From: a virus
Lineage: Duplodnaviria > Heunggongvirae > Uroviricota > Caudoviricetes
Reading direction: 5' to 3' (one strand)
Length of the DNA stretch: 6,025 nucleotides
IMG/VR virus record: IMGVR_UViG_2681813226_000023
Coordinates: 1-6,025 of that record
The notes under the pieces are model-generated. The model was given only the letters and a program-made list of their open reading frames with translations. It was not told the DNA's origin and did not search any database. Made by a program: the position numbers and the translations under genes. Every line of letters begins with the position of its first letter. The first letter of the stretch is position 1. Shown piece by piece: positions 4,951 to 6,025 of this stretch.

Positions 4951-5112
4951 ATGAGCGAATACATCACAGACCCTATTGATGTACTCACGGAAATCATGAA
5001 CGACAAGCAGCAGTCGACCGAAATACGGTTACAGGCCGCCGCTGTTCTGATGCCATATTTTCACGAAACACTAAACCCGTGCTTCCAGGAGGAGGAAGAA
5101 GATGATCTGTAA
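4951..5112 (+). CDS. Small acidic hypothetical protein (53 aa); absent from the supplied ORF track
   Basis: My own translation: ATG 4951 with GAGGT at 4938..4942; product MSEYITDPIDVLTEIMNDKQQSTEIRLQAAAVLMPYFHETLNPCFQEEEEDDL; stop TAA 5110..5112 overlaps the start of the next gene by 11 nt. Confidence 0.4.
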   Translation: MSEYITDPIDVLTEIMNDKQQSTEIRLQAAAVLMPYFHETLNPCFQEEEEDDL

Positions 5113-6025
5113 AAACATGAAAGGCGTGTCAGCAGTTCGCGCCGCCAGCGTGCTGGCATCGTGTAAATTTAGCCATGCTGACGCTATAGAGATGACGAAA
5201 AGAAATGATCCGGCAGTATCGAAATTTCTTGAAAAATCCATCGTCAACAGAATGACTACGGATAACATGCCGTCGCTGGTGGCAGAGCCGATAGTAAGAG
5301 AGCTTGGCGAGTATATTTTTTCGCAGTCTGTACCAGGCAAGCTAATCAGCAGCGCGCTTAATCTTCCGTTTGGCGCAAAATTGCATTCAATATCAGGCAA
5401 GGGTAGTAAATGGCTTAAAGAAGCCGAAGAAATCCCTGTCAAAGAGGGAGAAGTAAACGAAAGTGCGCTAAAATTGTGCAAACTTGGCGCTATTGTGATG
5501 CTGAATAACGAGCTAATCAAATTTAGCACCCCTGGTACAAATTCAGCGATCAGAGACTTGATCACATCGGAATCGGTGAAAGAAATAGATAAAAAATTTC
5601 TTTCCAGTGATCAGGAGGTGGCTGGCGTATCCCCTGAGGGCGTGCTTAATGGTGCTGATGAGGCCGAAAACTTCATAGAGATTTTCAAAAAGCACATAGC
5701 GAACGGTAACACGCTTTCCACGTCGTCGCTAATATTGCCCGTAGAAAACGCCTTACAGCTTACTGATGCTGAGTTCTGGCAGATAGAGCTTTTGAGAATA
5801 CCGGTAATTGTGAGCGAACAGGCGGATCGCATGATGCTGATAGACGCTCAAAAGCTGATTATTAACGTTGAAGCCACGGTTATAACCCCAACTGATGAGG
5901 CGGTAATAAAAACCGAATCAGGGGCGGTTAGCCTTTTCCAGAATGACGCTACAGCGTTCAGGGCAATCACCTATTGCGGATGGCAAAAACTCGATAAGGC
6001 CGTCACCGTTCTGGCGAAAAGCTGA
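5102..6025 (+). CDS. Putative HK97-fold major capsid protein, compact form (307 aa) without an obvious long N-terminal scaffold domain
   Basis: ATG 5102 preceded by GGAGGAGGAAG (5088..5098); alternative ATG 5117. Stop TGA 6023..6025. Central segment KWLKEAEEIPVKEGEVNESALKLCKLGAIVMLNNELIKFS...SAIRDLITSESVKEIDKKFLSSDQEVAGVSPEGVLNG follows the conserved HK97 gp5 pattern (KPES E-loop, ELL.D, G.G...EG.LN) as recalled from memory. Function is a hypothesis; the gene itself is well supported. Confidence 0.55.
   Translation: MICKNMKGVSAVRAASVLASCKFSHADAIEMTKRNDPAVSKFLEKSIVNRMTTDNMPSLVAEPIVRELGEYIFSQSVPGKLISSALNLPFGAKLHSISGKGSKWLKEAEEIPVKEGEVNESALKLCKLGAIVMLNNELIKFSTPGTNSAIRDLITSESVKEIDKKFLSSDQEVAGVSPEGVLNGADEAENFIEIFKKHIANGNTLSTSSLILPVENALQLTDAEFWQIELLRIPVIVSEQADRMMLIDAQKLIINVEATVITPTDEAVIKTESGAVSLFQNDATAFRAITYCGWQKLDKAVTVLAKS

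Follow-up and report, generated by a model that had tools for sequence, protein, structure and literature searches.

What does a compact HK97-like capsid gene contribute to an element in which it directly follows a small terminase subunit gene and a single small open reading frame (ORF), with the genes for the large terminase subunit (terL), portal and protease nowhere beside it? The question is raised by the DNA stretch analysed here (6,025 nt from a virus of the Caudoviricetes, positions 1 to 6,025 of IMG/VR record IMGVR_UViG_2681813226_000023; hereafter the window), the last gene of which, at 5102-6025, encodes a 307-aa homolog of HK97-fold major capsid proteins. We are almost certain that this protein is the capsid homolog encoded by a phage-inducible chromosomal island (PICI) of the Gram-negative type, which measures about 9.5 kb and occupies the cspD-clpS site in Shiga-toxigenic Escherichia coli (STEC). 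As to what the protein does, we favour, tentatively and at somewhat less than an even chance, a role like that of the satellite protein Ccm, in which the island-encoded subunit would co-assemble with the capsid protein of a helper phage and remodel the capsid.

The capsid ORF runs on the plus strand from an ATG at 5102 to a TGA at 6023-6025, which is the last codon of the window, and it is the final gene of the island. It is intact and lies exactly where a preliminary description of this DNA had placed it, to the 3' side of terS (4451-4939) and of a 53-aa ORF (4951-5112; hereafter orf53), as that description had likewise stated. The stop of orf53 and the capsid start overlap by 11 nt, and an AGGAGG element at 5090-5095 is located 6 nt to the 5' side of the capsid ATG. 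In family scans, the protein qualified as a member of Pfam PF05065 (Phage_capsid) with a score of 28.4 bits relative to a cut-off of 24.2 (E 1.3e-6, aa 100-300), and it matched PHROG families 617 (E 1.8e-10) and 10 (E 5e-8), both of which are described as 'major head protein'; TIGR01554, at 26.3, fell narrowly under its cut-off of 27.5. The RefSeq label is 'phage major capsid protein'. A query of PDB sequences with the single capsid sequence gave no match, and a homolog profile was needed. It should be noted that a word-indexed search recovered only 6 homologs, compared with 2900 at E<=1e-3 in an exhaustive hidden Markov model (HMM) profile search. When a profile of 98 homologs was compared with the PDB, solved major capsid proteins were the only matches, with Bxb1 best (E 5e-21) and 80alpha/SaPI1 and T5 also present. 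We regard the capsid assignment as weak by single-model scores and robust overall.

We used AlphaFold to predict the fold of the protein. With a 6-sequence alignment the model was unusable (predicted local distance difference test, pLDDT, 50.8), and the prediction was rerun on 98 homologs, which gave a pLDDT of 92.6 and a predicted template modelling score (pTM) of 0.88. The elements that define the HK97 fold were all found in the predicted model: an N-arm region at residues 53-81, an E-loop in the form of a hairpin at 93-122 (the tip of which is less confident), a spine helix of 23 residues at 144-166, a mixed alpha/beta A-domain at about 186-250, and a P-domain sheet at 252-296. The HK97-like character claimed in the preliminary description, which turned on the presence of the A-domain, P-domain and E-loop, is thus borne out by the structure prediction. 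Ahead of the N-arm, the model contains helices at 9-20, 25-32 and 37-48, amounting to about 50 helical residues, and this agrees with the earlier statement that the protein has a short N-terminal extension and no long scaffold (delta) domain. A Foldseek search of the PDB with the model placed Bxb1, Adephagia and SaPI1/80alpha at the top (E 1e-12 to 1e-11), followed by HK97 at E 5e-9 and encapsulins at about 1e-8, and a structure search of BFVD agreed with this result.

We observed that the window is the right two-thirds of an island of roughly 9.5 kb, and that strains of O157:H7, O103:H2 and O121 carry it in their chromosomes at 100% identity. In strain CV261, the left part of the locus consists of cspD, yljB, attL, an integrase gene, a hypothetical gene, a helix-turn-helix (HTH) regulator gene, YlcI/YnfO, an Icd-like gene and small ORFs; the right part consists of DUF4222, a P4-type primase gene, three small ORFs, terS, orf53, the capsid gene, approximately 0.9 kb of further DNA, attR and clpS. 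The att core ATGATAGTTAT is found at positions 5083 and 14603 of locus L001, 9520 bp apart and between cspD/yljB and clpS, and an identical att core and the same cspD-clpS site have been given for the PICIs EcCIIHE3034 and EcCI18098 (Table S1, PMC6092414). A 73-nt imperfect repeat had also been considered as att, and was dropped in favour of the 11-bp core, which matches the published att of this site. The two copies of that direct repeat (74% identical, L001 5178-5250 and 14466-14538, containing GGTGTAGTTAATGGTGTAGTTAAT) lie within the island, one near each end and on the inner side of the att core, and may be arm-type binding sites for the integrase. The element thus has the size, att boundaries and PICI-specific site of this class, with the integrase gene at its left end, and it has the corresponding organization as well: int, a regulator that is HTH by annotation (the class is defined by an alpA-like one), DUF4222, primase and iterons, with almost all genes on one strand.

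The full gene list, the downstream ORFs and family scans revealed no terL, portal, protease, tail or lysis genes in the 9.5-kb island, and a helper phage must therefore package it. Capsid-forming PICIs (cf-PICIs; EcCIEDL933, EcCI2, PDB 9GYI) carry terL, portal, prohead protease and head-tail connector genes in addition to a capsid gene, whereas the island of the window has none of these, and we rejected a cf-PICI identity on gene content. In keeping with this division, the PICI model of SatelliteFinder forbids the cf-PICI portal and connector genes, and terL further marks the cf-PICIs (PMC10085698). Identity as a defence system was also rejected, there being no match to PADLOC models. With regard to the preliminary description, its observation that the gene order skips terL, portal and protease holds for the window, but the missing genes are not to be found further downstream, where the complete genome has approximately 0.9 kb of non-coding DNA, attR and clpS. 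The order appears odd because the window is part of a PICI that lacks the other head genes; what had been viewed as a departure from the conserved head-module order of phages is in fact the usual arrangement in one of the catalogued classes of Gram-negative PICIs. As to the accompanying suggestion of a satellite-specific capsid, the gene does sit in a satellite and not in a phage head module.

Between the capsid gene and attR is a stretch of about 0.9 kb with no credible ORFs. This segment, which lies beyond the window (L001 13727-14602, from the capsid stop to attR), is repeat-rich and non-coding. It contains an 88-nt direct repeat at 13767 and 14304 (95% identical), repeats of 47-72 nt at 13895, 14101 and 14155, and a palindrome, TCCCGATATGG..CCATATCGGGA, which occurs right after the capsid stop and in a second copy at 13859. 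The first palindrome and one 139-bp block are kept in islands at the tRNA-Pro site. This region could contain a terminator, or else a site for packaging or for integrase arm binding.

The same context bears on the proposal, also made in the preliminary description, that the protein forms an encapsulin-like shell, that is, a nanocompartment unrelated to DNA packaging. There is no cargo or targeting-peptide gene nearby; the capsid gene overlaps a terS-linked ORF within a mobile satellite, and its 3' side consists of non-coding DNA and attR. Sequence profiles matched phage capsid proteins only, the best Foldseek matches were phage capsid proteins at E 1e-12, with the encapsulins some 1000-fold worse, and the nearest sequence relatives outside the protein's own clade are fusions of a prohead protease to a capsid protein. 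We rejected an encapsulin identity on context, and consider it exceedingly improbable.

Candidate helpers for the island were sought through its TerS and capsid protein. A tblastn comparison of the capsid protein with 50,697 phage records yielded identities of at most 26%, and its E. coli phage matches were to lambdoid STEC prophages (PPompW and the Stx1a-, Stx2a- and Stx2c-converting prophages). The best matches of the island TerS, at 46-47% identity, were to the same set of prophages, with the N- and C-terminal parts conserved and the middle divergent. The head module of this helper type contains terS, terL, a gene for a 645-aa Peptidase_S78 + Phage_capsid fusion, a 61-aa ORF and the portal gene, so that there too the capsid gene, as a fusion, precedes the portal gene. 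We observed that the island capsid protein aligns to aa 291-625 of the fusion (25% identity, E 1e-19), and it therefore corresponds to the capsid half plus the last ~50 linker residues, which explains both its compactness and its short N-terminal extension. The fusion has a protease and the full linker/scaffold, whereas the island protein is without the protease and most of the linker/scaffold. By our own count on the alignment, the N-terminal extension is ~35% identical to the helper fusion, compared with 25% for the protein overall, and 13 positions within residues 1-45 are invariant in the family. The helper-type gene was present in 1251 of 5426 E. coli genomes, in up to 7 copies, and the island carrier WL1277 was included among these. 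From the TerS and capsid-protein homologies we infer that STEC lambdoid prophages act as helper.

If the island protein is a Ccm-like subunit, events might proceed as follows. Induction of a lambdoid STEC prophage would lead to excision and replication of the island; the island TerS would pair with the helper TerL and direct packaging to island DNA, possibly by way of the AAAGTTAC repeats described below; and the 307-aa protein would co-assemble with the helper capsid protein on the helper portal, biasing assembly to capsids that are too small for the helper genome of 44-60 kb. Subunits without protease and scaffold could alter curvature or scaffold load, since each helper subunit carries both. 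The outcome would be that the satellite is favoured and the helper interfered with. A smaller T (triangulation) number, as suggested in the preliminary description, is plausible by analogy.

The precedent for such a role is Ccm of SaPIbov5 (Carpena 2016; Hawkins 2021; PDB 7RWZ). Ccm is a satellite capsid-protein homolog that is 23% identical to the capsid protein of its helper and has a shortened delta domain (87 aa, compared with 128 aa in the helper protein), and it occupies pentamers and redirects capsid size (PMC8569155, PMC6893505). The island protein presents the same combination of features, being a satellite-borne paralog, of low identity and with a shortened N-terminal scaffold/delta, relative to a presumptive helper. 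There are, however, several differences between the 2 systems. No sequence relationship between Ccm and the island protein is detectable; Ccm belongs to a Gram-positive host and a prolate cos helper phage, whereas the candidate helper of the island protein carries a protease-scaffold-capsid fusion; and the delta domain of Ccm, at 87 aa, is longer than the extension of about 50 aa in the island protein. Also, the role of Ccm is proven (pentamer occupancy and the change from prolate to T=4), whereas that of the island protein we only infer. A further precedent is PmCI172 of Pasteurella multocida, which we liken to the present island by description and not by sequence: it is likewise a Gram-negative PICI that carries a capsid homolog, and small capsids have been seen there by electron microscopy (PMC6092414), with a Mu-like helper, although the role of its capsid homolog was never tested. 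Capsid homologs in Gram-negative PICIs were noted in that study (Fillol-Salom 2018), and the review of Dokland 2019 repeats the point.

The island protein might instead build a small icosahedral shell by itself on the helper portal, with the portal, TerL, connectors and tails all taken from the helper; the island would then be an intermediate between the classical PICIs and the cf-PICIs. This is a good deal harder to reconcile with the observations. Assembly of HK97-type capsid proteins ordinarily depends on a delta domain or a scaffold, and the island has no scaffold, protease or portal gene. Ccm alone makes no capsids (PMC8569155). Moreover, the conserved N-terminal segment is the part of the island protein closest to the helper fusion, which suggests that the protein still interacts with helper assembly proteins. 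We consider independent shell formation unlikely.

Other observations weigh against co-assembly with the helper capsid protein, and they come largely from other PICIs. Deletion of c1499 or c1500 from EcCICFT073 left its interference with lambda unrelieved, and the capsids in which that island is packaged are of full size (PMC6092414, PMC6739421); also, PICI capsid genes have been stated to be dispensable for transfer (bioRxiv 10.1101/2022.07.18.500453). We regard the c1499 result and the statement on dispensability as the main counter-evidence, though they concern another capsid family: by the account of bioRxiv 10.1101/2022.07.18.500453, c1499 belongs to the lambda gpE family, unlike the capsid family of the window. 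EcCICFT073 is similar to the present island in its overall layout and in carrying capsid homologs in a Gram-negative PICI (c1499, capsid; c1500, decoration), but it has a gpD-like decoration gene beside c1499, and it uses Rpp and cos, not TerS. Furthermore, without headful packaging, a genome of 9.5 kb would be too small to fill even a T=4 shell. The identity of 25% to the candidate helper is low, and the real partner may be a phage outside the searched collections.

Dispensability is also what would be expected if the gene were simply a late gene that had been captured and now serves little or no function, either a recombination remnant or at most a backup copy. Capsid genes are described as the late genes most often captured by Gram-negative PICIs and helper-embedded satellites, and were dispensable in the one PICI tested (bioRxiv 10.1101/2022.07.18.500453); in addition, two relatives of the window's gene seem to adjoin phage late genes (portal and tail assembly), as described below. 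However, the ratio of nonsynonymous to synonymous substitution rates (dN/dS) of the capsid gene was 0.16-0.17 among three E. coli alleles, similar to the values for its neighbours terS (0.18-0.29) and orf53 (0.15-0.18), and the gene is under purifying selection. Of 5426 complete E. coli genomes, 220 contained it, in each case at full length, and the carriers listed were of STEC-type serotypes. Homologs of the same length and 44-53% identity were found in Serratia, Enterobacter and Arsenophonus, with a more distant member of the clade in Pantoea, and length and N-terminal extension have been kept in the relatives from all of these genera and from E. coli. The low dN/dS and the cross-genus homologs of equal length argue against a decaying relic, and the identity of no more than 26% to any phage capsid protein in the collection indicates that the capture was not recent. 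We give the captured-gene explanation little weight.

In a rough neighbour-joining tree, the island protein and 18 compact representatives (307-349 aa) formed one clade, separate from the fusion proteins and from a second compact group. A scan of genome contigs found a single locus, that of Serratia, and gene context was examined for four compact relatives, each of which proved to belong to a small replicon-bearing element. The Serratia relative is arranged as primase ... terS, a 54-aa ORF and the capsid gene. In P0004 the order is terS, a 51-aa ORF, the capsid gene and then the integrase gene of another element; in P0006, RepA ... capsid gene and then a phage tail-assembly gene; and in P0012, VapE, HNH, the capsid gene and then a portal gene. 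The P0006 and P0012 loci suggest satellites embedded in the late genes of a helper prophage, as described in bioRxiv 10.1101/2022.07.18.500453. In these two metagenomic relatives (L012, 4038-4622, and L013, 8489-9769), the tail-assembly gene (phrog_32) or portal gene follows directly on the compact capsid gene, and the portal match begins at profile position 48. P0009, P0012, P0013, P0015, P0016, P0018 and other members of the P0018 cluster derive from metagenome contigs, the longest of which are about 9.3-10.7 kb, near the size of the island; these might be excised or circular satellite genomes. It was also noted that the 90%-identity cluster that holds the capsid protein lists many 412-aa integrases (its representative is 412 aa), apparently a clustering artefact.

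The capsid gene travels as part of a portable late module. We observed that the segment 3585-6025 of the window (plus strand), comprising the three small ORFs, terS, orf53 and the capsid gene, has 95% DNA identity to islands that carry another integrase, a tRNA-Pro (yejM side) site and a RepA helicase, EcCI11128 included. The differing integrase and replication modules, joined to a common late module, indicate that the element of the window is a mosaic of published PICI modules. EcCI11128 is listed at AP010960.1 2855234-2864550 (Table S1, PMC6092414), and in RefSeq this interval contains int, the RepA helicase gene, terS, orf53 and a capsid gene 96.9% identical to that of the window. By comparison with EcCI11128 (O111) and EcCI11368.1 (O26), the late module is the same (capsid gene DNA 96.9-97.1% identical) and the capsid gene is likewise last, in islands of 8.5-9.3 kb, but those islands have the other integrase, the tRNA-Pro yejM-side site and the RepA-type helicase, in contrast to the P4-type primase and cspD-clpS site of the present one. 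Of 29 reference Gram-negative PICIs, 21 have been reported to carry a capsid gene (bioRxiv 10.1101/2022.07.18.500453). The element and its capsid gene are thus already known, the gene being annotated and contained within a published reference PICI. A literature search on the RefSeq accession WP_000562896 found nothing, and we found no paper that gives a function to this capsid family.

The position of the gene in this module also bears on whether the protein is solely a decoy, a poison subunit that enters or caps helper or competitor capsids and lowers phage yield, with no part in packaging the island. PICIs characteristically interfere with their helpers (PMC6739421, PMC6092414), the capsid gene stands at the 3' end of the island, and a capsid half without the protease and most of the scaffold could conceivably disturb the lattice of fusion subunits. 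On the other hand, no PADLOC defence model matched, and the capsid gene overlaps orf53, shares its orientation with the two packaging genes (terS and orf53), and moves with them as a module; nor would a decoy account for retention of the complete fold in relatives from other genera that are 44-53% identical. An interference-only role therefore seems to us rather improbable.

As regards the remainder of the late region, TerS (4451-4939, plus strand) is a protein of 162 aa with a Terminase_2 N-terminus and a full-length match to phrog_641. Six AAAGTTAC octamers are located at 4407-4680, two to the 5' side of terS and four within it; of the latter, three have a 12-bp spacing and encode the KKVTKKVTEKVT stretch, and one is an inverted copy. 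The six copies compare with 0.24 expected, and none of 200 shuffles reached six. The cluster is kept in other E. coli islands, but not in the candidate helper locus or in Serratia, and it is a candidate for an island-specific TerS-binding (pac) site. The product of orf53 (4951-5112, plus strand; 53 aa), which has an acidic tail (EEEEDDL), aligns with positions 89-125 of the phrog_641 TerS profile and resembles the conserved C-terminal motif of the TerS family, DP...AA..L..H; a BLASTP comparison with the island's own TerS gave no match, so the resemblance rests on the PHROG profile and a short motif alignment. In Serratia, and also in a metagenomic relative, an orf53 ortholog separates terS from the capsid gene. 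Possibly, the orf53 product could mimic the TerL-contacting tail of TerS and act in a Ppi-like manner or as an adaptor. The three small ORFs at 3523-3831, 3962-4156 and 4160-4321 (one matches phrog_1231; the other two have no annotation) are constant members of the module that contains terS, orf53 and the capsid gene.

The island replication protein is encoded at 1487-3235 (plus strand) by a gene for a P4-family primase/helicase with D5_N, DUF5906, Pox_D5 and TIGR01613 matches. Just to its 5' side, at 1191-1490 (plus strand), is a gene for a DUF4222 protein, an arrangement that is the same in related islands. Directly to the 3' side of the primase stop, at 3243-3475, is an iteron array in which CCTCTACC and GGTAGAGG occur in both orientations and flank an AT-rich stretch; the array has the position and form of a PICI replication origin (cf. 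PMC6092414). Among accessory genes of related islands, Table S1 of PMC6092414 gives rgdR (printed there as 'rdgR').

A broader proposal, which is possible though in our view doubtful, is that the compact 307-349-aa clade arose from the capsid half of the fusions as a lineage specific to satellites, and that together with TerS and orf53, the latter as a mimic of the TerS tail, it constitutes a minimal, three-gene hijacking cassette that rebuilds the heads of STEC prophages, Stx prophages included, to satellite size, forming either the pentamers or the whole shell. If so, the yield of Stx phages would be modulated. The element itself is an ordinary one, and the function of its capsid homolog is a reasonable and unsurprising experimental target: in the literature, none of the capsid homologs that Gram-negative PICIs carry has a proven role, and the sole one to have been deleted belongs to another family and gave no phenotype. 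The present capsid family, by comparison, moves in a tight module with its own TerS, and among E. coli phages it has relatives solely in the head genes of STEC lambdoid prophages, Stx1 and Stx2 phages among them. Should the capsid protein remodel or poison those heads, there would be an effect on Stx-phage production and on the spread of the rgdR-type regulators reported for these islands.

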